Assembly (NCBI GenBank): GCA_002633005.1 | Contig: NMRA01000029.1 | Coordinates: forward strand, 1,150,086 to 1,214,085 | Length of the DNA stretch: 64,000 nt | Direction: 5' to 3' | DNA from: Phoronis australis | Taxonomy: Eukaryota > Animalia > Phoronida | Part shown: positions 3,314-62,036 of the stretch, piece after piece | Layout: each line of letters opens with the position of its first letter | Numbering within the stretch: position 1 is the first letter of the stretch | Position numbers and translations under genes: made by a program | The notes under the pieces: generated by a model | What the model was told of the DNA's origin: nothing | The model's database searches: none | The model's input: the letters and a program-made list of their open reading frames with translations, nothing else

Positions 3314-3877
3314 CATAGACTGCCAACTCCGTATATTTTCAATGGACGAAATCTGTGATCTTACGCATAAGACGTGACGTCACTATTCAATAGTGACACC
3401 TGGCAAAATTAGCAAGTTTTACTTCCGGCAAGTGCGTCGTCTGCTAATCATGGTCATTTCGTCGAGATTTGGATCGGCGATTTTGCCCAACTCACATCCG
3501 TGTTTAAATAAATTGAACGCTCTTAAAACGTTAACTTTTTAAATAAAGCTGATATTAATACTCCAGAAATAACCATCAGGGCAACTCAAAAACCAATCTC
3601 ACACTTCAACAGCAGTTTAACTTGACGTTTCATTTTAAGCTCGAGTGCACGCCGGTGCCGCTCAAAATTTCTGGACTCTATTGTTGGAAGACCTTGAACA
3701 ACATTTCAATGCCGAAATTACTTTTTTTCGTTGTACTAGACAGTAAAAGAAATGCGAAAATTTTGCGTCACAATACACTAACCGGAAACGAATTGGTAAT
3801 TTCAGTGACGCCTCCTCCAGCGGATAGTACGTCGCAAGAAAATGTCGGAGTTGCGAATCTGTTGTCTATAATCTAAG
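3314..3877 (+). mobile_element. Short non-autonomous P/Galileo-like DNA element (internal-deletion relative of 7727-10043)
   Basis: Ends CATAGACTGCCAACTCCG ... CGGAGTTGCGAATCTGTTGTCTATAATCTAAG. Flanks GTGTGAC (3307-3313) and GTGCGAT (3878-3884) fit a decayed 7-bp TSD. Both subterminal regions align in reverse complement to the two ends of 7727-10043. Confidence 0.75.
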
Positions 3878-4597: not shown

Positions 4598-5687
4598 TTA
4601 ATTATAGAAGAAATTCCCCGTTTTCAGTTACTTCAACAGCGTATACATTTTCGCCATTTATAGAAATGAAGCCGGGTAATCGCTCTCTTGAGAAGGCCAA
4701 ATTGTGCTATTTTATATGACGCTATTTATTCTCTAATATCTCAAAAACTAAGTCGGTTACATCCTGATTTTCCCTTTTTTTACAGAAACACCATGGACAT
4801 CAAATAAAGCACAACAGAAAAAGTAACACTCTTACTATTTGCGTTCTAGAAAGTCAAAACGTTAACTTACGCCTAGGTAAGAAAATTAGTAAACCGGAAA
4901 TAGACAAACCCGCTAAAACATAAAAGTGGTGTCCTGTGTGGAAACATACATATGAGCTTGCCAAATTTCTAGTTAAAATTCTCAGACCTATCAATGAGAA
5001 CGACTACACTCTTAAAGATTCGTTTCGCGTTGTTAATGGAGACCGTGCTCTTAATGATGCACCCTTTAACATCTAGATGTTTGTAGTCTTTTCACTAATG
5101 TACTTGTGAATGAGGTCATTAAATTGTATATCGATACTGACAAACTGACTCGTAGCAAACTACGAAAGTTACTCACGATCTCAGTTAACCAAAGACGTTT
5201 CCTGTTTGATGATAACTTTTAAGATCAGGTTGACAGATTGGCCATGGGCTCACCCCTTGGGCCAGTGTTGGCTAATATTTTCATGTGTAATTTAGAGATT
5301 GAGGCTCTGGCTAGTTGTCCACCTGACTGTAAACCACGGTTTATTGTAGGTATGTGGACGATACGTTTGTTGAGTTTTCATCCAATAACTCAGTCGACAC
5401 TTTTCAATTACATGAACAATCCATCCGTCCATCAATTTCACCAGGAATTTGAGCATGAGTAGTGTCTACCTTTACTACATGTCTTGGTTAAACGTGAGGA
5501 TAGCACCTTTGTTACATCTGTCTATCGTAAGCCTAGTTTTTCTTATCTCAAATTTGATAGTTTTGTACCGATCCAATACAAGATAGTTCTAGTCTATTGC
5601 TTGTTACATCGTGCCTGGAGAACTTGTTCTACCTATTTAACTTTTGATAGTGACGTAGCTAGAGTTTTCCAGTTATTGCGTGCCAAT

Positions 5688-6812
5688 GGTTACCTTCTGA
5701 ATTTTTTGGATAGCTGTAAAAGGCACTAACTTTCAAAAATGAATAAGGAAGGTAACGTAGCTGTTATTGCACCCGAGAAAAATGTTTTCTTTTTTCTTGG
5801 TTACGCCTGGCCCAGTAGTCTGAAACGTTAATAATCTCGTCTTGTAGATTGCATAGACCCAGCCATTGAGCTGATAGTGGTTTTCAAACCTCTTTCAAAC
5901 TATCCAACACACTCTGTAAACTGAAGTCACCTATCCCTTTGTTAAATAGCAATGTTGTTTATAGGTAGAATGTGATAATTGTAATGAATTCTTTATCGGC
6001 CTCACACAGAGACGCCTCCGTGACAGATTGAGAGAACATCCGATACTTCAGACAAAAGCAACGTCTATAGGCAATGTGTCAGTAACAATCACCTAGCCAA
6101 TTCTGTCACTGTAATCCGTAAAGAGCCTGTAAAGGAATTACTTTACATTAAAGTCACTGGCCATTCAGGACCAGCATGCTGCTGGTTCTCTGAACAGCAT
6201 GCAAAGCTCAGTGACCCTATGGTGATGACCTGTTTACTATTTCCTGTCANGGTTACCTTCTGAATTTTTTGGATAGCTGTAAAAGGCACTAACTTTCAAA
6301 AATGAATAAGGAAGGTAACGTAGCTGTTATTGCACCCGAGAAAAATGTTTTCTTTTTTCTTGGTTACGCCTGGCCCAGTAGTCTGAAACGTTAATAATCT
6401 CGTCTTGTAGATTGCATAGACCCAGCGGTTGAGCTGATAGTGGTTTTCAAACCTCTTTCAAACTATCCAACACACTCTGTAAACTGAAGTCACCTATCCC
6501 TTTGTTAAATAGCAATGTTGTTTATAGGTAGAATGTGATAATTGTAATGAATTCTTTATCGGCCTCACACAGAGACGCCTCCGTGACAGGTTGAGAGAAC
6601 ATCCGATACTTCAGACAAAAGCAACGTCTATAGGCAATGTGTCAGTAACAATCACCTAGCCAATTCTGTCACTGTAATCCGTAAAGAGCCTGTAAAGGAA
6701 TTACTTTACATTAAAGTTACTGGCCATTCAGGACCAGCATGCTGCTGGTTCTCTGAACAGCATGCAAAGCTCAGTGACCCTATGGTGATGACCTGTTTAC
6801 TATTTCCTGTCA
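5688..6812. repeat. Near-identical direct duplication 5688-6249 / 6251-6812 across a single N (probable contig-overlap artefact)
   Basis: Two ~562-bp copies differing at a few bases, joined by one n at 6250. Confidence 0.8.
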
Positions 6813-6920: not shown

Positions 6921-8109
6921 AATTAATATGAACCTTTTCATTTGGGCGGCGATTGTCCGTTTTTTGAGTGATAAATGTGCCAAAGGGTAAAACAAAAAAA
7001 TGCAAATTTCATTGAGACCGACCCAACAGTTCACAACCCAACCAATGCCAATAGTCGCCTTGCCACGCAATACAAATCTCAAAATTCCCAACCAATCCAA
7101 CAGTCGCCGCTAATTTGTCGACTGATGTATTCAACCGCGCATGAAAAACTATCTAGTACCACGTTAAATCTCAAATCATACTTGAAAGTAAAAACCTATT
7201 CCTAAAAGACGTTCCTTCAACATGACCCGTTTTCCTAAATAAATATTTTGTAAATTCGTCTTTTTTTGATTGACTGCCTTTGAATGGCGCTGAACAACAT
7301 TTTCAGTATTCATAAAGGTTATGCATTACCCCAGTAAAATATTGGTAAACTTCGGAATATCATTTCTAAGATGGATGGTCGGACTCAAATGAAACTTTCA
7401 GATACTGTACTGTTAGGAATAGTTTTAAAATATTCCACTTTGCATGAGGGGTTATCAAAAATAGGACTTTTATAATTTTTCTGAAAAAAAAACTCAACTG
7501 AAAGTTACATAAAACGTAATATCGTTTTTGCGAATTTATCTCGAACACTGATAGCAAACAAAACTTGTTAATTTTATTTTAACCATCGTCCCACCATGAA
7601 TGAACTTTCCTGTTTGTTAACTTTTATTGAAAAGGCATAGTCAGGTTACACAATTAATGGGAAAATCGTGTAAAAAACTAATCACATTCTACACACCTTC
7701 TACTTTCAGAAAAATTTTCCTTTAACCATAGATTCGTAACTCCGGCATATCCCTACGTGCTGAGCTGAACTCTCCTGACCTTTCTGGTGCAGTTTCCGGT
7801 TAATATATTTTGACGAGAAATACTTGCATCTACTTTACTGTCCAAAACAACGAAAAAAATATTAATTTCGGTATTGAAACGCTTTTCAAAGTCTTTCAAT
7901 AGTAGAAGTGTTGGTATTGTGAGTACTTTTGGCAATGCTACTGGTAATTAATTACAAAATTCAAACTTCGGTGCCGACTGATTATGTCGTCTGCTTGCCC
8001 AATAGCAGCATAGCTATCGGACAGTTTTGGATTCATGGTTCACATAGGCCTACTGACTCGGAGAAAACTACGAAAGCATGTTTATAAATCAACATTCTCA
8101 AGTGAGCAG

Positions 8110-8187
8110 TTCTTCTGGGAAGTGTTGAGTGGCCCTTAAAAGGGCCGTTGGTTGTAGCTATAGCGTGAAATGGTTCTTAAAAGAACG
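8110..8187 (-). promoter_or_regulatory. Two tandem histone-type 3' stem-loops plus putative histone downstream element
   Basis: Minus strand reads CAAC-CGTTCTTTTAAGAACC-ATTTC (8187-8172, basal C-C mismatch), then CAACCAAC-GGCCCTTTTAAGGGCC-ACTCAA (8146-8131, canonical 6-bp stem and 4-nt loop), then purine-rich AGAAGAA (8116-8110). Confidence 0.78.
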
Positions 8188-8197
8188 GTTGAATAAT

Positions 8198-8401
8198 TCA
8201 ACGTAAATCACACAGTATACCATGCTCACTCAAGTACTGAAGGTCCTCTTCATTCAAGTTTTCATCTGGGAAGGTTGGATGAAAACAGAGGAGATGACAA
8301 TATCGATGACAGTTGTAACACCTTATATAAATGTTACCGTTCTGCAACGTTATCACGAACCCTGCCTTTTTCAGTTCTTGTTCCTGGATTCAGAAGTAGC
8401 C
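8198..8401 (-). pseudogene. Decayed PHD-finger terminal exon inside the P-like element
   Basis: After acceptor ttcag: GYF*IQEQELKKAGFVITLQNGNIYIRCYNCHRYCHLLCFHPTFPDENLNEEDLQYLSEHGILCDLR*. The C-x2-C-x4-H-x2-C core is intact. Three outer Cys positions read GGC, TGA and CGT, each one change from TGY. Confidence 0.65.
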
Positions 8402-9698
8402 CTGAACCATAGGGAAAAAAGACATACTACGAAAACGAATCAAATTTTGAAAATCATCGCCTTCGTGTGATTACGTGTTCCTGTCGCCAGACTGTTGTTC
8501 CTCCCCAACATCAATGTCGAAAATCGACGTTACAAGTGATGGAAACTTGTGTCCTTTGTTTCTAACTTTTAACCCATTTTTTAAGAAAAGAATGTACTGA
8601 TTTTGTCTAACGTTAATAGAGCATAACTTTTGGTTTTTACAATGCATTAATTGTGTTGAATGCATTCATATTAGGTGGCTTCATTGAGTTGAACAAAAAA
8701 TAAACTAAATGTAACACAATAAAGTTTTGAAAATAAACAGAACAGTAAAACAGGACTCCCTAAAAATCGAGCTGTTTTCGAAAACTTAGCGCCTTTGGTG
8801 ATCTGATTGGTTCATGCATTTACGGCAGGACAATAATAGACCAAGTATCGTGCACGTGTGCACTGTAGCAACACTTTGTACCTTATTCTTATTTGGCCAA
8901 TCTGTTGATACAGTAAATTTTCTTATCTATGCCCATCCTGATTTGACTGCAACTTGAGCTTGTTGGGTTCTATCATACATTGGGGTTGGCATTGGGACCC
9001 ACATGATGCTTACTCGAATGGGCTTCATTTTACCTAGGACCAATTACTCCCAGATTTTACCAAGTATTTCAAATTGAGGTGAAGTAAATAAACAAAGTGG
9101 GTGATTATCATCACCAGAATTTCATCATTAGTATCTTTTGCCGGGTGCTCAAATTTTCTGAGACTAGGGATTGTCAGATTTGTAAGGTAGAAGTGTTTCG
9201 CTGGATTTCCAGGTCTGTGGCNNNNNNNNNNNNNNNNNNNNNNNNNNNNNNNNNNNNNNNNNNNNNNNNNNNNNNNNNNNNNNNNNNNNNNNNNNNNNNN
9301 NNNNNNNNNNNNNNNNNNNNNNNNNNNNNNNNNNNNNNNNNNNNNNNNNNNNNNNNNNNNNNNNNNNNNNNNNNNNNNNNNNNNNNNNNNNNNNNNNNNN
9401 NNNNNNNNNNNNNNNNNNNNNNNNNNNNNNNNNNNNNNNNNNNNNNNNNNNNNNNNNNNNNNNNNNNNNNNNNNNNNNNNNNNNNNNNNNNNNNNNNNNN
9501 NNNNNNNNNNNNNNNNNNNNNNNNNNNNNNNNNNNNNNNNNNNNNNNNNNNNNNNNNNNNNNNNNNNNNNNNNNNNNNNNNNNNNNNNNNNNNNNNNNTT
9601 AGCGGATAACTTTCGTCAAAAAGTTTACCAGATAGTTTTCATCAAAACGGAGAAAACAAAAATGGATTTGTGAAGACAGGATTAAGTAGTAGAGTCTC

Positions 9699-9893
9699 TT
9701 AAAAACATTCATCTTCGAAGTGCCTTGAACAAATGTATAAAGTCTTATTGCTGAAACAACTGCCATTCACGTTGACACAAGAAGTAAGGTTTTCTTCCCA
9801 CAGCCGATTATGGGGTCTTCGGATGGTATGTTAGCTAACTCCTTTGCATTTCGCGTGTGTGGCCGAACAACCGACCACACAGTAGCCGACCAT
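9699..9893 (-). pseudogene. Decayed THAP zinc-finger domain ORF
   Basis: MVGYCVVGCSATHAKCKGVS*HTIRRPHNRLWEENL...LYICSRHFEDECF*: C-x3-C, conserved W and ICSxHF. In-frame stops. Confidence 0.8.
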
Positions 9894-11398
9894 GATTAGC
9901 AGACGACGTACTTGCCGGAAATTGCACCAGAAAATTTAGCCAGGTGTCGCCAGTGAATAATGACGTAAGGGCTTGTGCGTAAGCTCACAGATTTCGTCCA
10001 TTGAAAGTATACGGAGTTGGCGGTCCATGTACTATAGTCTATGCTTTAACTGAGTAAAAATCTCCAAATTTTGATGATATTTGGGTAAATACAGACTCGT
10101 CGATAAGGTCCTACACGCGGTAACGTTAAAAAGTTGATCATGAAAAGCGCAAACGCGTACATATTTTTGACATTTTTTATTTTCAGTTAGTGCCATCTAT
10201 CGGTGTTATTCTTTGGTAGATTGCAATTTTCCCGCGTTTCTGTAAGATAAGTGGCAAAACATCGTCAGCGTCAGCGCAGTCTTGCATAGAAAATGTGTGT
10301 TCAGCCATGTGTGGCTTGTGTTACGTAAATTTGTTATTCGATGGTTCCTGGTTCCGAATGAGAGAAGTTGCGATCCTGATTTGTAAATGATCTGTCTCAG
10401 GTGTCTAGCAGTGTGCCCCAGTGGGTCTCCAACGGCCTTCAGTAAAGAAAGCGGACACTTACATGTATCCCACAAGGCCACATTGACTCCTGTAGCTTAG
10501 AATAGAGTAGATAGAAAGATTGCATTCTGTGCATGCATGACGTTACTGTTTCCGCAGTTCATAAGATCAGGAAGGCGTGAAACCGGCGTGCAAGAAGGCA
10601 CGACGCGTGGTTGGGTTTCTATGGAAACATCAAAATCGATTTCAGTTACTGAAGCAACAAATATCATTTTATTGCATAAACACCTAATTATCGCTTCACA
10701 ACCAGATGGCGAATGGCCTTGATTAGTGGCCTGAGATCAGTTCAACACAATTTAACGCTATACATCAACAATCTAACAATTACAAGGAGGGCAAAAGTTC
10801 ACAATAACATGTGCAGTTTTCATAAACATTTATTGTGTTACATCGTTAAGGTAATTTAGTGGTGCTGTTCTCTGATTGGTAAATTCAACATGGCTGCAAC
10901 CTCGACTGCCAGTGTCCGAGTCCTTAAGAGGTACCGGTGACGTCACGCCGGCGCCGGCGTCCAATGTTACTGATGATGTGTGTCAAGGTATTATAGTGAT
11001 TGTTGATCGCCCAGCGAGTGACTGCAACAAAAATAGCCATACTGAAGTCGACAGTTAGTGAGGTATGCATTCAATCACAATTCACTGGTCATCACCGATA
11101 AATCACATTCAGCTGATAGCAATGTTAAGTATTAAAACCTCACGCACTCCTAACTATGTCAAGCCGAAATTTCTTCAAAATTTGATGACTGAAGCAAGTT
11201 AGCGGTGGTGAATATTTGGTATAAAACAATCAATGAGTTCTGTTCGGTCCATGATTTTATCATATTTAATTAACTCGCCGTATTAAAAACCGTCACAAAC
11301 TTAGATAAGAAATTAATGGTTTTTCAAAGATGGTGCTACATATGGGCTAACCATTGTAAAGAGAATACTGATAGAACCTGATCTCAACTGAATCAGAA

Positions 11399-14612: not shown

Positions 14613-15777
14613 CTGCAGAAAAAGTGAAAGTCTTAAAAACTGACATCCATTTGTGTGGTACCTTACCCGGGTTTCGTGTCCCGTCTAAAACCACTCTACC
14701 CTCTCCCAATTATTAGTCAACAGTTTTTAATCAACTACAAAACTTGACCAAGGTCTCATGTGCTCTCATTTTTAAGGCAACTTAGAAATTTGTGCATGCA
14801 GTGACATCTGTTAGTAATGCTGATCACTGGCCTCATCGGGCAAAAAGAGACGGAAGTAAGAACGACAACTAGACTTGCATGCCCGCCAAGGCGGTATGCT
14901 TTTCTATAGCGGACTTTGAGATAAGCGGCTAGGCCTTCCAGGGAAACAGTCATCAACAGAAAAGGTACAATTTCTGTAAACTGTTATTTTTGCTTTTACC
15001 CAAAAATGCCATTGCTTCAGTTACTACTAAAAAGTTGTGTACGTTACATGTACAATGCACGGCTGCCTCAACGGCTCTCCTTTTCGTGACACAGGATACC
15101 ATTTTTCCATAGAAACCATTATTAGAAAAATGAAACAAAATAAAACACTTATGAAACAAGCCAATAGATCTGCTCAAACAGCTGAAGACTCATCGAAAAA
15201 TTGTCCACAGATTCTGTGACGACAGAAATTAGAAGAAAATCCCGATGTGGGGAGCAAAATATTGGTGGAGTGTGATACTACAAACAAAATTTTATTCTCG
15301 TCTCAATTTATGGAACCATAGAGTCTTTTTATCATTCCGTATCAACGGCAATTGTCTGTCATTTTGTGCATCCAGATTTTGACTTAATAACGTCATATTA
15401 AAGTTGGTAATGATCCGAATGCCAACCAACAAGCGAAGAGAATGTATATGGTTTACGAGTTCACCACTAGATGAAAAATGCAACTGGCGGAGTAACCAGG
15501 GAACAGTAAAATGTCCATTCTTCAAGTGAAGAAGTGGTTTCGAAAGGCTTAATTTCTGTGCAGCTATATTCGCCGTATCATTCCTTCAGATAATTTCGAG
15601 CGACTGTTAATTTGGTCCAATATTTGATGTCCAATGCGAGTGTGATATGTACGACACCCATTACTAGACTCTCAACGTATAGACTTCCAACTCTGTTTGG
15701 ATTCAGGATTGGCTTCACGAAGCACGCATTTTAATGCTAGTTAACCATTTAAAAATAATCTCCACGTTTTCACTTAC

Positions 15778-15959
15778 CCGAACATAATCGTACTTGCAAC
15801 GGGAGTGGCTTTCCAATGCGAAGTCCTTAAACTGAACTTTTATTGCCGTTCCTTTTTCGGCGACAATTGTGGTGTTGCAGTTGGATCTTGATGGGTACGT
15901 CAAAGGATACCTCGGTGACGTCACGCTTCCGCTGCTTGCGTTGAAAACTGCGTTGCAAT
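15778..15959 (-). CDS. Gene C exon 3: CUB domain, N-terminal half
   Basis: (D)CNAVFNASSGSVTSPRYPLTYPSRSNCNTTIVAEKGTAIKVQFKDFALESHSRCKYDYVR|gtaagt, phase 1-0. Confidence 0.93.
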
Positions 15960-16179
15960 CTATATGCACGAGGGAATAAATTGATATGCATCAAAGTTCG
16001 TTTTGTGAAGATTACAACTAAAATGACTTGGAAACAGTACCATTGACTCGCATCACGATATCCATAGATGCATTTTGTTTTGAAAATATCTTAATTGTAC
16101 TACAGCTTTCTGGCTTCCCTTATTCACAACAAAGTATAGGTTCAATCAAAATTAGAAGACGCGCGCAACATCTACCTAC

Positions 16180-16726: not shown

Positions 16727-17309
16727 CTTAAAAGCGATATAACTTTCGACTTGAAGTCTTGCGATAAAAGAAATTTGAATGTCATCGGAGAGCGTCATCC
16801 ATATTTATATGCAAATGAAACGAGGAAACAGATACGCTGAAGGCGACACTCATTATCTCCGACCCCACTTACTCAGAAATCAGCCCCCGAGTTCTATGAA
16901 TTGTTAAGCCTTATCTTGTAGTGGGAAANGTGTTCAACCCATGATGTCACATGGCGGGAAATGTGAAAATTGGCAAAATTGAAAGAGAAATCAAAATTTC
17001 GAGCTAATGACACAAAATAATCATGGATTTGGCTAAATTTTACGTCATACATTTAGTCTGTGGCCACCGGTAATTCGAAATGTGCAAAAATCCATGGTGT
17101 GTACTGTTTAAAAGCGATATAACTTTCGACTTGAAGTCTTGCGATAAAAGAAATTTGAATGTCATCGGAGAGCGTCATCCATATTTATGTGCAAATGAAA
17201 CGAGGAAACAGATACGCTGAAGGCGACACTCATTATCTCCGACCCCACTTACTCAGAAATCAGCCCCCGAGTTCTATGAATTGTTAAGCCTTATCTTGTA
17301 GTGGGAAAC
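16727..17309. repeat. Near-identical duplication 16727-16928 / ~17108-17309 around a single N (probable assembly artefact)
   Basis: Two ~200-bp copies, n at 16929. Confidence 0.75.
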
Positions 17310-21212: not shown

Positions 21213-21796
21213 CTATAATTGAACTGAATCGGCCGAGGTTTTTGGAACAGAGATATTGGCCGTTTCAGCATTTGGATTTGATGGCGTCGAATTTATGACT
21301 CCGTCAGTGTCCTTCAATTGCAAAGCATCTGGTGCTGTAATGGTTTCCGGTGCCGGGAGATCTGCACTCGTGTACTGTGCGTTACGAGGATCATCTGGTT
21401 GTGCGGGAAGGGCGTTCTCCTCCGCACCACCACCTTTAAATTTCGTTGGGGCTTCCTCAGTCAAAACGTCATCTGGCTCAAAAGTTTGTGGCGTGGGAGA
21501 CGCCGAAACTTGTGGCTCGTCAGTAGGCGTCTTTATGCTCTCGCTCTCCGTTAAAGGAGCGTTCTCGACGGCGAGACCTGAAGCTGATTGAGAGGAGGCG
21601 TTGCGTATGCTCTGAACTTCGATGCCTGCTCTCTCGGCCTCGCTGAATGTGAGCACCGGACAGTCGCATGGCACCGTGGCTTCCTGGTCGCCCCGTTGTG
21701 TGCGTCTAGGCAGGCACACGGCTATAACACCGAAGACGAGAAGCAACACAATACCGACGGTTGATCCAATAATGATCTTGTGTACTCTAGTGAGTC
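21213..21796 (-). CDS. Gene B last exon: transmembrane helix and acidic Pro/Ser/Thr-rich cytoplasmic tail
   Basis: accgtag|(G)LTRVHKIIIGSTVGIVLLLVFGVIAVCLPRRTQ...SADSVQL*, open for 194 codons, phase 1. Confidence 0.88.
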
Positions 21797-22273
21797 CTAC
21801 GGTAAAACGACGTCAAAATATTGGTGATAGTAATGCTGAAAATATCACGCTAAAATTTAAGTGACGTGAAATGTGAATCATCCTTCCCAGCAAAAACTCC
21901 TTAGCGCAGTGTCACACCAAACTCGTACTCAGAACATCCGAGCCAATGTTCAAAACATAATGGGGTGGGAACGAGTGGAAACAATCAACACGGGCCATAA
22001 TAAATTGCTTCGAATGCGACACTTCTTTGTTGCTATACATGTCCGAGACACAAGCACGCCTTTTAAGAGGCTGACTTTCACTAAGGGACTCAGAAATCCG
22101 TCGATTCCATTTGTAATTTAGCAATCTGGTTTGCAGTACGACCATACCTTGTTTTGTTTTATGACAAAATAAAGGATTGTTCTAAAACCCCCTGGACCCC
22201 CACGTACCTCACGACCCCCCCGACCCACGACCCTCTTGATCGCGGCAATAGAGGTATCCTTACGTACGTTAAC

Positions 22274-27574: not shown

Positions 27575-28302
27575 CCGGAAATAATAGTTTCTCGGGAGCG
27601 TGAACCAGTTCCTCACAAATTATAACACCCGAGTGGCTTCAAAAGTGATATTCTCGACTAACGTCTGATATAGAAAATGACATGGTAGTATTTTAGCGAG
27701 CCAGACACGAGAAGTACGGTCGTATGATAATACTTCGTAACATATTCGTGACAAGCCAAGGTAATTGACTTCAAGGTTATGTAAGACTCTCGAAAAATAG
27801 CAAAATTTCGCAAACTTGAGATCATCACATCTCCGACATTGTTGTTCAGATTCATATGGAACATGAGACATCATATTTCACGCACTTTTCTAAAAAAACG
27901 CTGTTGGGATTTTTTAAAGTTACGCTTTTGCATAAGAAGCTATCAAAAATAAAACTTTTGTGATTGTCATGAATGAACCCAGAACGGGCATAAAACGAAA
28001 ACAAAATGATAACTTATAAAACTGTTCAGTGTTTTGAGATTTATTTAGTCATGTTGTTGATGCTGTTAGTTTGCTATGGATATACCTTTCTTTTTTGTTA
28101 AATTTTACTAAAAAGACATGGTTAAATTTAATCACAGATTGACATAAAACCAAAAACCAAATCCTACAAACATAAACAAGTTTTAGAAAACGTATGCCTT
28201 TAACGTGAATAGGATTTTGTAGATATTTGGCGATAACCTTAAAAATCTAAGAAACAACGTAAAACTCAGGAGAAAGCGAGGCCACATTTATATAACACTT
28301 AC

Positions 28303-28590
28303 CACGACAGGCAGGAAGTTGCTTGCAGGCAACCACCTCGTAAGTTTTGTTCACGTGTTTGCTACTGACATAACAGTAAAGGCCTTTGTCGTTGCTCAAA
28401 GGATTTCGACAGTAATTGTTCGTATGGTTCAAACTGGATTCTGGGAACCAGGCTGCATCGACGGCATCCTTACCCTTTTCCTTGACCTTCATCCATTTCT
28501 CGCACGTCCTCCCGTCGATGGTGCTGGACAACGTGCCGCTGTACGCGTTCATTCTGGAGTCAACGATGCATTCCTGACCTGGTGTGTTCT
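28303..28590 (-). CDS. Gene B exon: kringle domain
   Basis: cttcag|..ECIVDSRMNAYSGTLSSTIDGRTCEKW...NYCRNPLSNDKGLYCYV...ACKQLPACR|gtaagt, phase 1-1. NYCRNP signature. Confidence 0.95.
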
Positions 28591-31500
28591 CTGAAGATAA
28601 CATTGCAATAACAACTTTTCTGCGGGCTTACCGTTAACTCAGCACGTCCCTTCTCATCAACTGATATTTCGAAAAGTTTGCCTTTTTCGAAAGGCATTGG
28701 TAAATCTCACCACACTGCAATCGAAATTTTCTGGCATTACAGGAAAGATGTTAAGAGGCAGTCTGTCAAAAAAAAGAAGAAGATTTTGAAAAATCAGTCT
28801 ACACGTCAAAATTCAAAACAACTTCATTTTTTGTACATGGATAGGTGACCTAAAATCTAAATGCCTCATTTTGTGCACTCAATGACCCCTAATTTCGTCG
28901 CGGGAACACTAGACCGCAATTGGTTATGTCAGCAGTCTCCAAATTTGTATGTTTTCAGCAACAAAAATAAATAACTTACAAAATAGATTGAAAGTTTTTC
29001 TTTGGTGGCTGGAATAACCGATGAATATTGTAAATAATTATTTGGCATTTACTCAAATTTGACGGCTTTGTACTAGAAGATAGGGGAGATATTCCACAGA
29101 CCACTTTTCATAGTTAAATTTAGTGGCCGCTTTTTTGACCCTCTTACTGCCCTATTGCACCTTGTACCTTTATGTAACTTTTTAAACATACAGCTAAAGA
29201 GTAAATCGTGATGACTGACCAAAAACATACATGTATTTTGACTCAACTTAACATTTAGTGAAAATTGTCTTGCAAATCTGTCAATTTTGGAAATAATGAT
29301 TGTAGTTTACAAATAAATTGAACGAAATTTTGAACAAGAAATCTGCTTTAAATTGTTATAAAAGTCAGGTCTAAGGCCTTTGGAGTGAAAAAAAGTTGTT
29401 TTCTGGATGGATTACGCGAAAATTTTCAAAACTGAACGCGATCACCTTTGCCTGGTTTCCCTCTTGGACGACAGCTGTTTAACAACCTCCCCCCTTCGGC
29501 AGGCACCCGGCGGCAACTGATCCCCTTGCTACAGCACAGAGTCAGACACTCGGTATTTTTACTATGAAATCCAGACCGTTGTGTTGAACTGTGTTTACCT
29601 AGTGTCTGTCATGAATTGAGTCATTAATGAAATTGTCTGTCATTAATTGCATTTTCTTGGCCATGAATGACCATTAATGATGCCACTGTCAGAAATATTC
29701 AACCTTGGGGTGGCCGGTGACCGGTGCAGAGATTAAAATTCATTGCAACCTTAGGGGACATAACAATAAGAACGCAAAATTACAATGAATTTTGATCGAG
29801 TTGAAAAAATTTTCGGACTGAACAGAGGGCCATAACCCCCTTAGGTGCCTCCCTTCCTATGCCAATGGCTCTCACAACGAAGATAAAAATCACGGGAGGC
29901 AGATTCGGCTGGTAGTCGCGCCCACAGTGTCCAAGTAAATAAAAAGCTACGCCATCTGTCACTTAGACGAAGCACGCATGCCACTCACAATTTATGCACA
30001 TAAATTTTTGTAATAAGCCATAATCATAAGTGTGATTTTTGAGAGAATGGTATTTGGCGCTACGTTCAAATGCCAAAAGGTGGTTGGCTGCGCCCACGTA
30101 CGCCAACATCCCTCTACAGCACTGTTTACGTCGTCATTACAAGCAAAGACGCTAACAAGACCACAGGCGCTCGGATTTCCAGATCACTCATAACCATATA
30201 TAAGAAACATAAAGGTTGGACACTTAAACTTTGCCAAGCCGAGGCTCCCAACTTCAACCGTCCAAAATCCAAATAAAATCTGCGTGCACCTCCCTCAGTC
30301 TGGTGTTGTATAAACCTTCGAAGCCTTATCTTTCTTAGATCTCATTAACTGTCTTCACGAGTGGTGAATTGGCGATGGAATTTCCAAAACAATCTCAAAA
30401 CTCTGAATTCAATGACCTGAAATAGTAAACATGGCGGATTTCAGTTGTGCTTCAACTTGTACGCCTGTCGTAGGTGAAACTTCGAGTTTGAGCAAGCAAC
30501 CTATATTTCAAATTCAATAACTCTAATCCAAAACTCAACTAATTGAGAATGTTAAAGTTAGTATTTTAATGACTATTTGTAACTTTATTCCACTGACGAC
30601 TCATTTTAGCCCTTAACTTAGAATTTTATTGCATAAACTGGCGTATCTTGTTTCTCATCTTGACATCACGCACTTTTCTGATTGAAGCACAACACACACT
30701 CGGCCAGGAAACGCAGTCCGTGCAAGTATTACAATGCGCGTGGCCGACGAGTTAACTCAATGGTTTTGGTCAAAAGTAAAACCTTCATAAGAAATCACAG
30801 TACACAAAAAACTTTGCATATCAATACAGTATCAGGATAATTTATATTTGACACAAATATCTGAGTAGTTACATTTATTTGGCAATGATAGTGCTCTCTG
30901 CTTCTGATGACCAAGTAGTCGAGGGATTGATGGCGCGCGAAAATAGACTTTCGGATTTAGCTCGGGAGCGTCCCTTAAAAACCCGGATGTGTGAAGACCG
31001 TCTGCCATGACATCACAGGAATGACTTCCTTGAATTTGTGATTTTGGCATTCTTTTGGCATTTTTGTCACCATATCACCACTCGAAGGCAATTAGAAGAG
31101 ACCAAATGAAAGAAGGTATTCTAAGAGTTGTTCGATGCTAGTTTCGTGGAGTTCCATGCACATTTGAGTAGAGAATTTTTAGGAAACAGATTTCGAGTGT
31201 CCAACCTTTATGTTTTCTTACATGTAGTAGTGTGTGACGTCATTTTCGATCGAGGAACAGATAAACCCAAGCTCCTGTGAACAAGACTATTCACCAAGAC
31301 CGCCGCCATTATTATGTCATGGACCGTGACGACACCTAGCGGGTGTGTGTGGGCCGACGAAGTACGCAAGGCATTGAATATGGCCGATCTTAGTTTGTCA
31401 AATTCAAAATTGTCAGTGAAGTGTCTTTGTTTAATATGTTGAAAACAAAAAAACACGAGCACTGTAATGGAAAAATACACATAGGCAAAATATAGAATAA

Positions 31501-42048: not shown

Positions 42049-44950
42049 TCATCCACCCTCAGGGTCATACTCTTCTCCTCTACGAACCAAATCCAGCTTA
42101 CACACTCTTTCTACTGTGGTCTCCGCTGCTGACAACCATGATTTGGTACGTTTTAATCTGGTGTCTTTGGGTACAGCCAACTGATCATGCAAGAGATGTT
42201 TCCTGTTTTTAGCCACCCGGAACATTGCTTTCAGCTGGGCTAGTCTGTGCCTTTGTTCAACACTCGAGAGCCCCAGAATGTATCTCATTGCTGCTATTGG
42301 GGGGTCCTGATTACATCCAAGGATAATTCGCATTCCAGAATTCTGTATCCTCTCTAATTTCATCATTTGTGTCTTGGATGCTGTGATGATGCCCAAACCG
42401 TAATCAATGACTGACATTACTACCGCCTTGAAGAAAATCAATAGCTGGCGTTGTTCTACTCTACAGGTAGCCATGGTCTTTAATGCAGCTAGTCCATGTG
42501 CGCAACGCTTAATTTGGTGGTTCACATGCTCTTTGTAACTCAACGTTCTGTCAAACATTATCCTCAGGTACTTAAGGCCAGGTACTCTTTCCACTTCCTC
42601 TCCCCCTATTCTCACTTGCGTCAAGTCTTTGCATACTATGTGGTTATCCAGAGAACACCAGAGCGATGCGGCCTTAGCGGGGTTCACAACTGCACTATAT
42701 TCATCACACCATTCATTGACCTCCTCCAGAGCCTTTCCCGCAACCTCAACCATGTCATCTCTGTTGGTGTCTGCTGTGTATATAAGGGCATCGTCTGCGA
42801 AAACGTGTCGTGTAGATGTGGTACATTACTGGTGACAGTGGCGATCCTTGTGGAAGTCCAGGAGTTATTGTAACTGGATTCGACACACACTGCTCCAATT
42901 GTAGCGCAACCGTGCGTTTCATTAGTGCGCTTGCCACCCAGTTAATGAGATGCGGATCCAGCTGACAATCGACTAGCAGGTTCATCAGTTTTTCGTATGA
43001 TACCTGACATACGCATCCTCAACATCAAGTGCCACTGCTATTGTTTCCTTCTTCCTCCTAAATGCCTCGAAAGTGTCATAGGCAAAAGTTGCGGCGTTTG
43101 TTCATGTATCTGTTCCTCTTCTGTAGCTACCAAGAGTTGCAGGGAATAAGACCTCAAGATTGTATGAAATGATCTGCGCCACCATTTTCTCCATCAATTT
43201 TCTAACGATATTGTGCATAGTAATCACTCTATAATCATTTAGCTTCGTGTGATCCATGTCTGGTTTTGGTATCACCGCCAGGTAACTATGTAGCCAATCT
43301 TCCGAAACCTCTCCCATGCTTAGGCTCTCATAGTACATATTGGCCAACTCTTCTAGCTCCTGGTCAGACAAACTGCTTAGCATTTTGTAATCGATTTAAT
43401 CAGATCCTGGTGCCGTGCTCTTTGATCTTGACAGTGTAGTTTTGATATCTTTAACAGTAAAAGTGATGGAGGAAGCCGTGCCACTGATGAAGCCATGCAT
43501 TTTGTCTTTCACTTTGACTCTTTCCTCAAGATTTTTCTGGTCAGTCTGTTCCAGGTATCGGCCTAAAAAGGCAAGACCATTGCTTTCAGCAGTTTCCAAG
43601 AGTGTTCCATCTGTTGGTTGTGGCAGATTCTCATTCATTCATACTTTTGTGGAGGCTCCAAAACTCCCCAAGAGCCCGATCATTTCGAACGTTGTTGAAA
43701 AACATCTCCCAGCGTTCACGCTTGGCACGTCTGACTTTGGTTTTTAAATCCTGAACTGCCTTCTTCATTTCATCTTTAGCCAATTCAATTTCTCCCTCTG
43801 TAGTTGGTTGGTTGTGCCTTAATGTTTGCCATTTTTGTTATTAATCTTTTATGAGGCCAATCCTCGTCCACTTCCTCGTTCCACCATTGTGGTTGCTTGT
43901 AGGCTTTCCTCTTCCTTCTTCCTTTTGACTTGTGCTTTTGCTGGCGTAGTTTGGCAATGAGGTTTCCATAAGTTGCACTGTGTGAATACTTAAACACATT
44001 TCTTCGGTGTTTAATCCTTGTTGCTTTGTGCTGTCTGATCAAGACCGTGCATAAAAGATGGTCGCTTCCATGGCTACCAAGAGTGGTAAATTTGCACCCC
44101 AGAACCCAAAGTTGTAAACACCATCTAAAAATAGATTTTGACGTTAAAGTACATGTCAACAAGTCTGACCCCATGATTTAAAAGTACACATGCACAAATT
44201 TTGGGCAACTTAAAATGGCTCTATTCTTACTAATTACTTAATCAATATTTATTCTGACACTCCTGTCCTCTGAGCAATCCTAGTAACTGTGCCGTCGTTA
44301 ATGCATACCAAGTCTGAATTTACCAACCAATTCTCAAGCTCTTCTCCTTGTGGATTTGTTGTTGCATTGTCCAACAGTAATGTCCGAGCGTTGAAATCTC
44401 CACAAAAAATAATCTCTCCATTCAGGGCAGAGACAACATCGTGCAAAACGTCCTAATCGTTCGTCCTTGTAAGCATATTATTGCATGCAAATATGTTAAT
44501 TATGTTTATGCTTAATTGGGAATATTTGATTTTAACACACTCCATTTGTATTCTATCATTGCTGTAATTTTCAAAGTCCAATTTTGTTGCTGAGATACCA
44601 GATCTAATCAAGATGGCATGTCCATGATTTGCATTTTCAGAGATCACTTCATATCCGATATCTTAAGTGCTTTACCATCTTCCTTACATTTCGTCTCCTG
44701 TAGGGCCCGGATGTCGTGGTTATACACTAATCTTTCTAGAATATCTCCTCTCTGGTAGACACTTCTGCAATTCCAAAAACATAACCTAAGATTGGTTTTA
44801 CTCAAACATTGGGCCTTTGTTTCGTGCTCACGTTTCCCTGCTTGATGCCGTTTTCGTCGGGTCTCAGCATGTAACCGGACCTCAAGCTCAGGTCACGTGC
44901 TCCGTAGCTCCGGCGAGGGTTCTGTTAAATTGTTTGAAATCTCCATATGA
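42049..44950 (-). mobile_element. Decayed non-LTR retrotransposon (APE endonuclease + RT), I group (Ingi/Nimb-like)
   Basis: FWNCRS..LQET, FCGDFNA, GSDHL (endonuclease); APGSD, IPKP..DYRVI, GLPQGSPLSP, YADD, RIQNSGMRIILG (RT and C-terminus). Many stops and frameshifts. Confidence 0.92.
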
Positions 44951-48657: not shown

Positions 48658-49642
48658 TCATTTGGTGCTAGACGCATCAGTAAACTCATTAGCGAAAATC
48701 CATCAATCACCACAAGCAGCATCGTTACTAACAATGGTAAAGTCATAGCCACTGGTGAAGTATGGACGTAAAATGTACAGATCACAAGCGTGAGCAAAGA
48801 CGTATGAGGTTGGCACAAGATCCTTGTAGCTATAATCGGGATCAACGTCAATTTCCTACGTCTTCTTTGTCAACTTAAGTCAATGTACAGCCCTGTTTCT
48901 AACATAGGATTGCTTTAAGACTAATTTCCTGTTTGCAAACCCAACACGACATTTCTGAATGGAATCATAACCCCTTACTCACATGGACATAGTCGTCCAT
49001 TTTTGACATATTCATTGTATTGATCCCGAATCATTAACTAGGAACGCGGCCCTGCGCGTGTTCATCTGAACAATCGGGATGCAAAACTGTCTACCCGGTA
49101 ATTTTAAACAACGCATTTTAACCGTTGACTAACGTTTAAAGAAATCAAAAACCGAAGGTATTGACAGGTCTTATGAAAAGGGATTTCGCGAGTTCTGCCT
49201 CGATGACGGAACGCCAGATTTTACTAGTTCCGACATACAAAAACATACACGCGATAAACTGCTTGATCACTCATTGCATGGCGGTCTGACANTCATTTGG
49301 TGCTAGACGCATCAGTAAACTCATTAGCGAAAATCCATCAATCACCACAAGCAGCATCGTTACTAACAATGGTAAAGTCATAGCCACTGGTGAAGTATGG
49401 ACGTAAAATGTACAGATCACAAGCGTGAGCAAAGACGTATGAGGTTGGCACAAGATCCTTGTAGCTATAATCGGGATCAACGTCAATTTCCTACGTCTTC
49501 TTTGTCAACTTAAGTCAATGTACAGCCCTGTTTCTAACATAGGATTGCTTTAAGACTAATTTCCTGTTTGCAAACCCAACACGACATTTCCGAATGGAAT
49601 CATAACCCCTTACTCACATGGACATAGTCGTCCATTTTGACA
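48658..49642. repeat. Near-identical duplication ~48658-49008 / 49293-49642 around a single N (probable assembly artefact)
   Basis: Two ~350-bp copies, n at 49292. Confidence 0.8.
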
Positions 49643-53446: not shown

Positions 53447-54484
53447 CTGTAAAAATTAAACAGCGCTGATAAAACAATAAACTGGGACTTGCTGAAAGCT
53501 AGGATGTATTGTCATTTGCCAATAGAAGGCGATTTCTCTGTCAAAATGGCTTCCTACTGAAGCAATTTTTATCTCAAACTGTTAAAGGAGAAATGTCGGT
53601 TGTCTATGATGCGATGTCAGGAATTGAAATACGTACGTGATATCAATTCTCTAATACTAACTAATCAATCATTATGAGCTGGTATGGCACGCCAATCATG
53701 ATTTCACTCTAACGTCTTGTCTGTTAAAGCAGTGAAGGCATTTCCCGGTCCTTAAGCAATTATCCGCTACACATCCAAAACAAATGAAGCGCAATTTCGC
53801 GGCCGTCCAAGGGCCATGAGTGTACAATCTGCTGCTCCTACTTGGACATTTAAGCGGTAGATACTGTTGAGCAGATAAGTATTCTAAAGTGCACCTGCTG
53901 CCTTTTCGTAAAATCTCTATTGATACGCTCAGCGTCGAGAGCATTTCACCGTTATTTTCGAAGAGTATGGTAAACTATCGAGGAGTTGATACAAGTGAAG
54001 AACCAGGATGCCACAAGAGGACTCAACCACAACTTTCAAAGGAAAGTGTCCGCCACAGCCCTAAAAGCGGCATGTTGGCGGCGTTCTTTTTCCTGGTTGG
54101 CCCCGCAGGGTGGTCTGGGGGCGGGGTGTTGAGTTAGCACCGCGAAATCCGTCTATGGATGTTTTTGACTTTTGGTTAACAGGAGTTTCAACAGAGTTTG
54201 GATATTAGATCATGGGCCCAGATTAACGCTGATTGGTCAGTGTTATGTCGTTAAAATGCGAATTCGTGGTGATCTAGTTGCAGAACCCAAGAGCTATCAT
54301 CAGAGCGCATCGCTTCTCTAAACATCCGAGTTATTTGCGTAGTTCCCGGGCGTTATACCGAGCTTGACTCCCAATAGTTCAGCCCAAGTGTCCCCTCACC
54401 TAGGTATCAGTTTATACCAAGCGTTGCCTACGATTCGGGTTCGTTGCCTCCCATTTCTTCTCTGTGTGGCTGGTCTAGGATATA

Positions 54485-56048
54485 CTTGTTGGAGACTGCC
54501 GTAAAGCACGTAACGGGAAACTGCGCATGGATCGGGTGATTATTCCTTTAAATTGGATAGTATGCTACTGAACCGAGAACAGTGCATTACCGTGTCATGA
54601 CCTTTTCCAAGTCTACCAGGAAAGCGTCGCCTTCCCAGACCGCCATGGTGTACACGCAATGTTCGTTCATAATCAACGAACATTGTTCTTCTTTAAATAA
54701 ATCATGGCTTTTGTCTTATGGAAAGTTCGGACATGTCAATCAAGCAAAAATTTTAGCTAATCAGATCGCAGGAGCATGTAAAATCATCGGTAATGGTTTT
54801 ACGATGCGTCTGCAGTACAAGAGATCGAAAGTGTCAGTCACTGATAAAAGCATGTAGCAGACGTCAGGATGAGATGAATACATTTGGATATTTAATTTTA
54901 TAAACGCACATCAAAACGATTTGAAGTCAATGAATTTTATACAGGATAAATATTGTATTATCAGTTATCAAAATCGTTAAATTTATCTATTAATCCTGGA
55001 ATTAACTAATTACGCTTATTACTACCAAGCGACTTCATTCGGAAATCCATTATGTACCAAAAATTAGGGGGCGCTCGGAGTAATCGACATAAATGACGTC
55101 ATCCGAGACAAGAAGCGCAGGCCTGTTATATGAAAACGGACCACAATGCGAAATGTTTTGCTGCCTATTGCGACTTAGTGTTTTGTTACTGGTGCCCTGA
55201 TACGTACCTTATCGTCTGGTTAAAAATTGAGACTGCCACGGAGGGAGGCAAAGCGTAANACTTGTTGGAGACTGCCGTAAAGCACGTAACGGGAAACTGC
55301 GCATGGATCGGGTGATTATTCCTTTAAATTGGATAGTATGCTACTGAACCGAGAACAGTGCATTACCGTGTCATGACCTTTTCCAAGTCTACCAGGAAAG
55401 CGTCGCCTTCCCAGACCGCCATGGTGTACACGTAATGTTCGTTCATAATCAACGAACATTGTTCTTCTTTAAATAAATCATGGCTTTTGTCTTATGGAAA
55501 GTTCGGACATGTCAATCAAGCAAAAATTTTAGCTAATCAGATCGCAGGAGCATGTAAAATCATCGGTAATGGTTTTACGATGCGTCTGCAGTACAAGAGA
55601 TCGAAAGTGTCAGTCACTGATAAAAGCATGTAGCAGACGTCAGGATGAGATGAATACATTTGGATTTAGAAAATTTCATATTTAATTTTATAAATGCACA
55701 TCAAAACGATTTGAAGTCAATGAATTTTATACAGGATAAATATTGTATTATCAGTTATCAAAATCGTTAAATTTATCTATTAATACTGGAATTAACTAAT
55801 TACGCTTATTACTACCAAGCGACTTCATTCGGAAATCCAGTATGTACCAAAAATTAGGGGGCGCTCGGAGTAATCGACATAAATGACGTCATCCGAGACA
55901 AGAAACGCAGGCCTGTTATAAGAAAACGGACCACACTGCGAAATGTTTTGCTGCCTATTGCGACTTAGTGTTTTGTTACTGGTGCCCCTGATACGTACCT
56001 TATCGTCTGGTTAAAAATTGAGACTGCCACGGAGGGTGGCAAAGCGTA
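54485..56048. repeat. Near-identical duplication 54485-55258 / 55261-56048 across a single N (probable allelic overlap artefact)
   Basis: Two ~780-bp copies with a few SNPs and small indels, n at 55259. Includes a partial copy of the gene A exon 7 end. Confidence 0.8.
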
Positions 56049-56253
56049 AGAAGTAGGAGGTATGGCCACTGCTCGCCTGACTCTCGCTGGGGTTTTTGCC
56101 CAGGTACAGAGACTGTTGTTGGTCTCTACCACGACAACAACAACGTATTCCAACTTCAATTTGTTCGTGGCACACGTGTTGAGTGGGAAGTTGTCGGCAA
56201 CTTTAATGTTGCCTGGTGACAAAAACTTCTTTGCTTGTTTCTCGAGGACTGGA
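55999..56253 (-). CDS. Gene A exon 7: globular ectodomain with RVRR furin-type site
   Basis: atttcag|PVLEKQAKKFLSPGNIKVADNFPLNTCATNKLKLEYVVVVVVETNNSLCTWAKTPARVRRAVAIPPTSYALPPSVAVSIFNQTI|gtacgt, phase 2-2. Confidence 0.88.
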
Positions 56254-60186: not shown

Positions 60187-61259
60187 TTAAAAGGTTCCTG
60201 ATAACATGCATAGTGTAATTCAATTGATGAATAAAGTCTATATCAGAAATCACATGTGGTAGCGTAGTACTGTTGACTCATTCAGTTTATTTGAGTACTA
60301 TGATACGATGCATTTTCGAATGATGAAGGGCAGACCGGAGTGCTCGCTAGTTCCCCGCGTGTCGCTAGGGGGTATTCAGCTGGCTAGGCACGTAGGGAAC
60401 CAGCGAGAGCGGAGTGAGTTCGTCCACCCGCCACATCTCGACTTTTACGCAAGCCCGCATATCCGCTGCATTCTTGTGATGTACATGATTGCTGACGGCA
60501 TACTAAAATTAAAAGAGTTTGTCTCTAAGACGTTCCGCTGATTTCAGGAGGGAGATTGTCATTTGTATTCACGCAAGCATTTTTGATTCCAATTTGATGT
60601 GTTCTTTTTGGTTCATACATTAGACTCGAACTCAAGATTTTTATGTAAGATATGACACCCGAGCTTGAACGTGACCATTAGTGAGTTCATATAAACACGT
60701 ATTTTATTTCACAAGCGATGCTTCCCCTTACAACATTTGGTTTTAGGTTGTCAGAAAATCACATTCTGGAAAAAAAAACGCGCAGGAGGTTTAGTCAGCA
60801 CGAGTTTATCCAGCGGTCAAATGCTTATTTGACTTAAAAATATTTTTTCGAATGTTATTCTTCATCATGATCGCTGTCGGCGTTTCTTAAAAGGTCACGA
60901 CCTCTGACCCCGGGGCTCTGACATAGAAAGTAGTTACAAAGCCGAGGCGAGTCGAGAAAGGTAGGTAGATTCATTGCAATGTTTGTCGTTCAGTATGTGG
61001 TATAAATAGATTATTACATGTTCTCAGTCGTTATTGTCCTTATGGATTNTTATTGCTTGAGACCAAGCTCTACAAGCTGACTTGTCACGATTGGTCGTTG
61101 TAGGTGTCGATCGAATAACAAAATGTCAGGTTTTCCAAATTCAAGTTCAGTAACCCCATCTCACCTCAGGTAGGAACAAGTCGAGATCAGTTTCTTAGTC
61201 ACGGTGGCGAGTGCTCCAAATCAAAAGTTCGATTCACTGACGGAACGCAACCTACTCAC

Positions 61260-61376
61260 CTTGCACACTCTCCTCCAGTGTTGCCGTTGCCGTTGCATGA
61301 ACTCCGCCGCTCGTTTCGCTAACGTTCATTGCGCTAAAGCTTGTTGCCACACTTTCGGTAACAATGGTCGTAGATG
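61260..61376 (-). CDS. Gene A exon 3: duplicated, shortened copy of exon 2
   Basis: ttttcag|(A)STTIVTESVATSFSAMNVSETSGGVHATATATLEESVQ|gtgagt, phase 1-1, open. Confidence 0.78.
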
Positions 61377-61567
61377 CTGAAAACAAGGCACACACCATGT
61401 GGTTATTTTGATTAACAAAAACAAATAAGTTTCATATCCCAATACCGAAGTTTTCCAAATTCAGCAAACCCATCTCATCTCAAGTAGGACCAAGTCGAGA
61501 TTTCTTTCTTAGTGGTGAGAGCTACAAACCAAAACTTCGATTCATCGACGGAACGCGATCTACTCAC

Positions 61568-61747
61568 CTTGCACACTCTCCTCCAGTGTTGCCGTTGCCG
61601 TTGGTTGAACTCCGCCACTCGTGACGCCTGTTGTTGACGCACTGTCGGCAACTGCGGTTGACGCGTTCACGACAACGGAATCTGTTTCGCTAACGTTCAT
61701 TGAGGTTAAGCTTGTTGTCACACTTTCGGTAACATTGATCGTTGACG
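61568..61747 (-). CDS. Gene A exon 2: Ser/Thr-rich mucin-like region
   Basis: ttttcag|(A)STINVTESVTTSLTSMNVSETDSVVVNASTAV...TLEESVQ|gtgagt, phase 1-1. Confidence 0.9.
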
Positions 61748-62036
61748 CTGAAAACAAGGCGCACACCATGTGGTTATTTTGATTAACAAAAACAAACAAG
61801 TTTCATATCCCAGTAGTATTATTGTGAGATATATTCAAAATGTTACCGCAAGTGCAAACTTCACTCTTCTATCATTTCAGTAAAATGAAATACAAGTTTC
61901 ATTACAACTGTTGAGGTTACACACATGCACTAGGTGATATAACACACTTACTTTTTAAGCACACACACGTAGGATGTTTGTTTGTTTGTTTTTATGTATA
62001 CGATGTACATCGGTCTGTGACTGACATACTAATTAC

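Follow-up and report, generated by a model that had tools for sequence, protein, structure and literature searches.

Histone-type stem-loops behind a stand-alone PHD-like gene in a high-copy, P-like DNA transposon family

Introduction

Why would a gene that encodes no histone, carried within a DNA transposon, end in two stem-loops of the histone mRNA type? To our knowledge, textbook accounts confine the stem-loop/U7 route of 3' end formation to replication-dependent histone mRNAs, and the evidence comes mostly from mammals and flies. In the available text of one study, SLBP in human cells was found on histone mRNAs and on no other RNA, and histone mRNAs are given as the sole known non-polyadenylated cellular mRNAs (PMC4604434). 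The hairpin of histone mRNAs is placed 25-60 nt after the stop codon in the excerpted part of a recent preprint (bioRxiv 10.64898/2026.10.14.759114). A cnidarian study, in the part available, treats the hairpin together with the histone downstream element (HDE) as a hallmark of replication-dependent histones (PMC5011920).

One reported case links U7, HDE-like motifs and transposable elements, as the present locus may do: U7 snRNA represses the transcription of human HERV1/LTR12 via HDE-like motifs and not via cleavage (bioRxiv 10.1101/2023.08.25.554787). That case differs in being transcriptional repression, and the excerpted text describes no histone stem-loop or cleavage. A full-text literature search, with subscription journals mostly outside its coverage, found no histone stem-loop described for a gene of a transposon. 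The locus was analysed within a 64,000-nt stretch of Phoronis australis DNA, referred to here as the window.

Results and Discussion

Hairpins downstream of the stop codon

The PHD-like open reading frame (ORF) on the minus strand stops at TGA 8200-8198. As claimed in the preliminary description of this DNA, whose coordinates all hold, two stem-loops of the histone type come after the stop, and then a stretch rich in purines. Hairpin 1 (8172..8187, minus strand) starts 10 nt past the stop; in the window copy it has 5/6 pairs and agrees with the consensus at 15/16 positions. Its annotation draws on the letter at 8187 in RNA reads and contigs, and on a purine scan, which found no purine-rich element 3' of it. 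Hairpin 2 (8131..8146, minus strand) is a canonical histone stem-loop, with 6/6 pairs and 16/16 consensus positions. Its stem begins 51 nt past the stop, inside the 25-60 nt histone range, whereas hairpin 1 lies outside that range. The purine-rich AGAAGAA, earlier placed about 15 nt further on, was found at 8110..8116 (minus strand), 14 nt past stem 2. This candidate HDE (6/8 purines) is identified by its sequence and lies within the Rfam match; by a loose criterion, a purine-rich stretch stands at HDE distance past stem 2 only.

The Rfam Histone3 model (RF00032), proposed earlier as a check, matches hairpin 2 above its gathering score in the window. The match (8151-8105; E 8.3e-7) scores 36 bits, where gathering is set at 34, and is the sole Rfam match across the 64 kb of the window, in which the scan detected no U7 snRNA; hairpin 1 of the window copy, taken by itself, falls below the gathering score. 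RNAfold analysis showed that both hairpins fold (z -3.4, 0/200 shuffles). A relaxed hairpin pattern matched only these two hairpins in the window, while 30 shuffles averaged 0.2 matches and none had two; among 3000 element-sized Markov resamples, 15 had one match and none had two. From the PHD-like stop to position 7727, where the element ends, the window copy contains neither AATAAA nor ATTAAA, in agreement with the earlier description; variant hexamers in this interval are TATAAA (8086), AGTAAA (7839), and AATATA (7809). The window also has no recognisable histone ORF, as had been claimed: nine histone motifs, allowed 2 mismatches, gave 0 matches in six frames, with the 377-nt N gap at 9222-9598 unreadable.

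It is very improbable that the hairpins are DNA-level palindromes (inverted repeats kept symmetrical by template switching), chance products, or a single-copy insertion. Similar shapes do arise elsewhere: the tandem-hairpin pattern matched 0 viral loci and five prokaryote loci unrelated to the transposon, three of which are 49-nt repeats of one archaeal genome; the single-hairpin pattern matched one viral locus (L004 1660-1680), inside a 1323-codon ORF, and this match was taken as chance. The full 16/16 consensus, the histone-like flanks, the purine-rich stretch, the correct strand after a stop codon, and the absence of two hairpins from all 3000 resamples argue against such an origin, and the reads and contigs, which derive from many copies, rule out a single-copy insertion.

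A Methanosarcinales genome contains, at L005 2878-2938, L007 3001-3159, and L008 3001-3060, intergenic 49-nt tandem repeats, each with a perfect palindrome that fits the histone hairpin pattern. This is probably an unrelated archaeal repeat.

The transposon carrying the hairpins

The hairpins lie within a copy of a P-superfamily-like DNA transposon (7727..10043, minus strand; about 2.3 kb with a 377-N gap), which is delimited by the ends CATAG...CTATG and by contig flanks. The identical 7-bp target-site duplication GTTAAAG stands on either side, with the left copy at 10044..10050 and the right copy at 7720..7726 (both minus strand). CATAGA is present at both element ends, and the terminal repeats are short and imperfect. 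A short MITE-like copy of the same family (3314..~3850, plus strand, right boundary approximate) is also present in the window. It has both ends, which align with those of the longer copy over 142 nt (85%) and 115 nt (78%), and lacks the THAP body, the PHD ORF, and the hairpins; its left end agrees with the right end of the longer copy at 14 of 18 positions. An extra 14-nt terminal block was seen at 10043-10030 of the window, followed at 10029 by a second, decayed terminal repeat, an arrangement unlike that of the MITE-like copy at 3314.

The element contains a THAP-like ORF (9702..9893, minus strand) with one stop, at codon 21, in the window copy. The Pfam THAP match of this decayed copy has an E of 4e-4, with 21.5 bits against a cut-off of 23.9. 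The stop at codon 21 is open in other copies; nearly all of the contig depth carries other letters at both 9831 and 9832. An assembly gap (9222..9598, 377 N) interrupts the element. No transposase catalytic (RNase H-like) domain was found in the readable part of the element, outside this gap, and the protein search gave no longer THAP relatives, which is a weak negative.

Contigs from two DNA runs (X1 and X2) of one sample of organism A were compared with the element. At 10043, 133 (X1) and 144 (X2) contigs exit into diverse flanks (agreement 0.4), giving more than 130 distinct insertion flanks for the family. Within the element, contig depths add up to thousands, against about 4-12 (X1) and 23-71 (X2) for a single contig; summed depth is not copy number and conveys an order of magnitude only. 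Many contig joints connect about 7934-7945 with about 9841-9889. The flanks, the depth, and the internal joints therefore identify a high-copy family with MITE-like deletion forms. The earlier assignment to a DNA transposon family is thus supported by the sharp end at 10043, the many flanks, and the 7-bp duplication.

Membership in the P superfamily is likely, because of the THAP-like ORF, the 7-bp duplication, and the GT..AC-like flanks. The Galileo/1360 branch of this superfamily, in which Galileo makes a 7-bp GTANTAC target duplication, offers a close comparison in the available text of PMC4168063. The two share a 5' THAP-like ORF, a 7-bp target duplication, and MITE-like deletion copies, and the flanks of other copies of the window family begin with GT..AC-like letters comparable to GTANTAC. 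In contrast to that branch, as described in the same text, the window element has short imperfect terminal repeats, an extra PHD-like gene with histone hairpins, and no transposase catalytic domain in its readable part.

Hairpins across the family

The preliminary description had held that its reading would fail if other copies lacked the stem-loops, or if the segment were a histone-pseudogene fragment present in this copy only. Neither turned out to be so: the hairpins occur family-wide in contigs and RNA reads, and in many copies. Position 8187 is G (minus strand) in 96 of 101 raw RNA reads, with 30, 41, and 6 start places across the three runs. The same letter accounts for 8627 of 8668 depth units (18 contigs) in X1 and 78962 of 79566 (24 contigs) in X2, or 99% of the depth. 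With G as the family letter, hairpin 1 is therefore perfect in the family. One low-depth contig of organism B also has G at 8187 (depth 2.3, possibly an error). Single contigs span the end of the ORF and both hairpins, one in X1 (record 2, 8096-8311; 26 other letters, 18 gaps) and one in X5 (record 2, 8089-8384; 16 other letters, no gap). Hairpin 2 has no variant place among the differences listed (40 of 241 and 40 of 553 places). The stem-loop feature in the transposon is real and family-wide.

Among the joints listed, one contig per DNA run skips 8119-8191 and hence both hairpins (depth 19 and 99, corresponding to one or two copies); rare copies therefore exist without both hairpins. The high contig depth over 8116-8201 was considered as proof of extra conservation and discarded, because summed depth is no copy number. 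A division of the variants into synonymous and non-synonymous was likewise set aside, since it would have covered the listed places only.

With the family letter, hairpins 1 and 2 differ at 4 positions, which make up two intact compensatory pairs (P 0.03 if only transitions are considered, 0.003 for any letter). Outside the hairpin, the two 41-nt blocks agree at only 11 of 25 positions. Such a pattern would be expected for selection on an old tandem duplicate; it could equally come from the capture of two different histone ends or from a palindrome subject to template switching. The hairpins might also be passive cargo, if a founder copy captured one or two histone 3' flanks that were amplified unused, their conservation reflecting a recent burst. 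This explanation is doubtful. In its favour, the copies are mostly 80-99% alike, so that any sequence looks conserved, and the MITE-like copies lose the entire middle of the element. It is opposed by the fact that no histone coding was carried along, by the start of hairpin 1 only 10 nt past the PHD stop, and by an orientation and distance of the hairpins that suit a 3' end signal of the PHD-like ORF. In addition, every difference between the hairpins preserves the pairing, whereas the flanks have diverged, although two captured histone variants would match this as well. An unused capture is further consistent with the lack of a hairpin behind distant PHD homologues and of a processed RNA end in three runs, as described below.

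The PHD-like gene

The gene upstream of the hairpins is a stand-alone 105-codon ORF of the PHD-like (C4HC3) type with an acidic N-terminus (8198..8515, minus strand), defined by its alignment with the homologue P0002 and a Pfam PHD match (E 0.0026, below the cut-off). The ORF shares 72% identity with P0002 over 81 aa, ungapped from codon 1, and P0002 begins with Met at the codon matching 8515. Another relative, P0001, shows 62-66% identity. A loose contig end of X2 at 8520 reads as that start on the opposite strand. The window copy is decayed, with changes in the start codon, two stops, and a short compensated frameshift at 8431-8420, where the indels at 8431 and 8420 cancel out. With the letters that most copies carry, codon 15 is no longer a stop and the last Cys is regained; codon 42, the second stop, does not figure among the differing places listed. 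The ORF thus looks open in the transposon family, and the window copy is a decayed version of it.

The profile search, which covered protein lengths of 39-322, gave 25 proteins at E<=0.001 out of 672 candidates; these are mostly stand-alone proteins of 107-119 aa, and one is named as from Dreissena polymorpha. The homologues P0003 and P0015 exceed the Pfam PHD_NSD cut-off. The predicted model of P0003 has a pLDDT of 74, and its top fold matches are PHD fingers, albeit weak ones (E>=0.24). The atlas search gave PHD clusters, all scoring under 0.9, and a PDB sequence search gave no match for the PHD-like protein. No longer relatives of the PHD piece were found by protein search, a weak negative.

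The earlier suggestion of an apparently spliced THAP/PHD transcript was not sustained. The PHD frame runs on upstream to 8515, without a gap to the Met-starting P0002; the homologues are stand-alone proteins, and no minus-strand splice joint occurs among the 15 of 22 RNA joints listed. A last exon beginning at the splice acceptor near 8402 was rejected because this stretch lies within coding sequence. Without a coding intron, the gene is more histone-like than in the earlier reading; its intronless status concerns the coding region only, with the 5' UTR outside. An enrichment of CCAAT 5' of the ORF was also considered and rejected (5 against 2.3 expected, p 0.07).

Distant relatives of the PHD-like gene

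The PHD alignment search of metagenomes identified three loci among 180 candidate stretches; no relatives were found in viral contigs or prokaryote genomes. PHD-like ORFs of about 108-110 aa adjoin a transposase-like ORF and share 34-45% identity with the window ORF; the invariant columns among the PHD-like relatives are L, G, R, C, H, and P. In two loci (L001 1836-4009 and L003 1-2465), the PHD-like stop overlaps the start of a long DUF7869 (PF25273) transposase-like ORF, which we take to be Sola1-like. The Dreissena protein P0028 continues into the same transposase sequence. These results suggest that the PHD-like ORF may be an undescribed accessory gene of DUF7869 transposase-like elements.

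The genes beside the DUF7869 transposase and the window gene belong to one protein family and are stand-alone ORFs in a mobile context. They differ in their surroundings: in the former, the stop overlaps the transposase start and no hairpin follows, whereas the latter has hairpins and P-like ends. The hairpin after the PHD-like stop is absent in 2 of 2 readable loci (L001 and L003); L002 breaks off before the stop and was excluded from this comparison. Its absence there makes the hairpins look like an acquisition in the lineage of the window element, a P-like THAP transposon.

RNA reads across the site

Three raw RNA runs of organism A were sampled at 18-19% each, giving 2328, 2047, and 1175 placed reads; the library selection is unstated in the records. 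None of the entries listed as containing the stretch is recorded as RNA, which counts neither way. The libraries were taken as stranded, with plus first mates in the sense of the PHD gene, because the joints are strongly one-sided and a plus-strand GT..AG joint has only minus first mates. Reads occur on both strands, and 225, 224, and 195 of them exit at 10043 into host flanks; most of the RNA signal is therefore read-through from host transcripts. No sense 3' end pile-up was found near 8126 in the three runs. The sole pile-up among those listed, at 8157 (8 molecules, X9), belongs to the antisense class. The ratio of sense depth after the hairpins to the ORF mean is 0.42, 1.10, and 0.10 (the last at a depth of about 5), and the ratio across the boundary of hairpin 2 is 0.88, 1.09, and 0.30. 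These values hint at a drop past the hairpins in two runs and at none in one. Poly(A) selection may hide a histone-type end at about 8126 in these runs, which neither confirm nor exclude an end at the predicted site.

It is also conceivable, though unlikely, that the hairpins are SLBP sites on a longer RNA and serve its stability, storage, or translation, or that they titrate SLBP or halt read-through, U7 cleavage being slight or absent. Sites of this kind would fit the presence of two hairpins, the first of which is too close to the stop and has no purine-rich element, as well as the shortness of the candidate HDE and the RNA depth that carries on through the site. However, a purine-rich stretch stands at HDE distance past hairpin 2, inside the Rfam match, and no poly(A) hexamer of the canonical kind lies downstream within the element; the continuous depth is accounted for by host-gene read-through.

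A plus-strand GT..AG joint at 7797-8374 was observed in 9 (X9) and 8 (X10) reads, with both hairpins inside the intron. It shows that some host transcript has an antisense copy of the element as an exon.

Proposed histone-style mRNA end

Taken together, it is judged somewhat probable that the transposon family uses the hairpins and the purine-rich stretch as the histone-style end of a separate, short PHD-like message. An SLBP/U7 mode of processing is proposed because the RF00032 match lies in sense, after the stop, and at histone distance; because hairpin 1 becomes perfect with the family letter at 8187, and the hairpins differ by intact pairs; and because the gene has no coding intron, canonical poly(A) hexamer, or histone motif, while its ORF is open with the family letters. 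Counted against a histone-style end were the lack of a sense pile-up near 8126 and the depth continuing past the hairpins, the loci L001 and L003 without a hairpin, the contigs skipping 8119-8191, and the restriction of human SLBP to histone mRNAs.

In the proposed mechanism, hairpin 2 would be the target of SLBP and the purine-rich stretch at 8116-8110 the pairing site of U7 snRNP, and cleavage by CPSF73 at about 8126 would yield a short non-polyadenylated PHD-like message. Hairpin 1, which has no downstream element, is probably an old tandem duplicate and would likely serve as an extra SLBP site. If the message behaves like histone mRNAs, synthesis of the PHD protein might fall mainly in S phase, or oocytes might store it; a chromatin role for it is suggested by analogy with PHD fingers.

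The site resembles the metazoan histone 3' end (RF00032 plus HDE; SLBP, U7 snRNP, and CPSF73) in its 16-nt hairpin, the G-C pair at stem position 2, the U at loop position 3, the AAC before the stem, the purine-rich stretch about 15 nt behind, and the placing of hairpin 2 within 25-60 nt; a coding intron and a canonical poly(A) signal are lacking in both. Unlike the histone case, the ORF is PHD-like, lies in a transposon, and is followed by two hairpins, and its processing is predicted.

A broader reading is offered tentatively: animal DNA transposons may be able to connect accessory genes of their own to the SLBP/U7 pathway. In this case a P-like element would have acquired a PHD-finger gene, related to one next to a Sola-like transposase, and provided it with a doubled histone end, with expression in S phase or the egg and a message invisible to poly(A) methods. 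If true, a transposon family with this signal behind a gene for another protein would be a natural exception to histone exclusivity, and the pathway would give cut-and-paste elements a means of coupling their expression to the replication of DNA or to the germ line. Poly(A)-based surveys would then miss some transposon expression, and a chromatin-reading protein might accompany the histones, either in S-phase synthesis or in the provisioning of the egg.

Other features of the window

Several features apart from the element were recorded. Direct repeats occur by the single-N gaps at 6250, 16929, 49292, 55259, and 61049 (5688-6550, 16728-17308, 48658-49592, 54484-56049, and 61204-61815, respectively). 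The first four are near-identical and are likely to be assembly overlaps of two haplotypes, not true duplications. Non-LTR reverse-transcriptase-like remnants were recognised by eye from translations at 5223-5729 (plus strand) and 42052-42825 (minus strand). Host exons on the minus strand lie at 15715-15990, 21216-21812, and 28250-28627, and include a CUB domain (Pfam E 1.3e-16) and, judged by eye, a transmembrane-like and a kringle-like exon.
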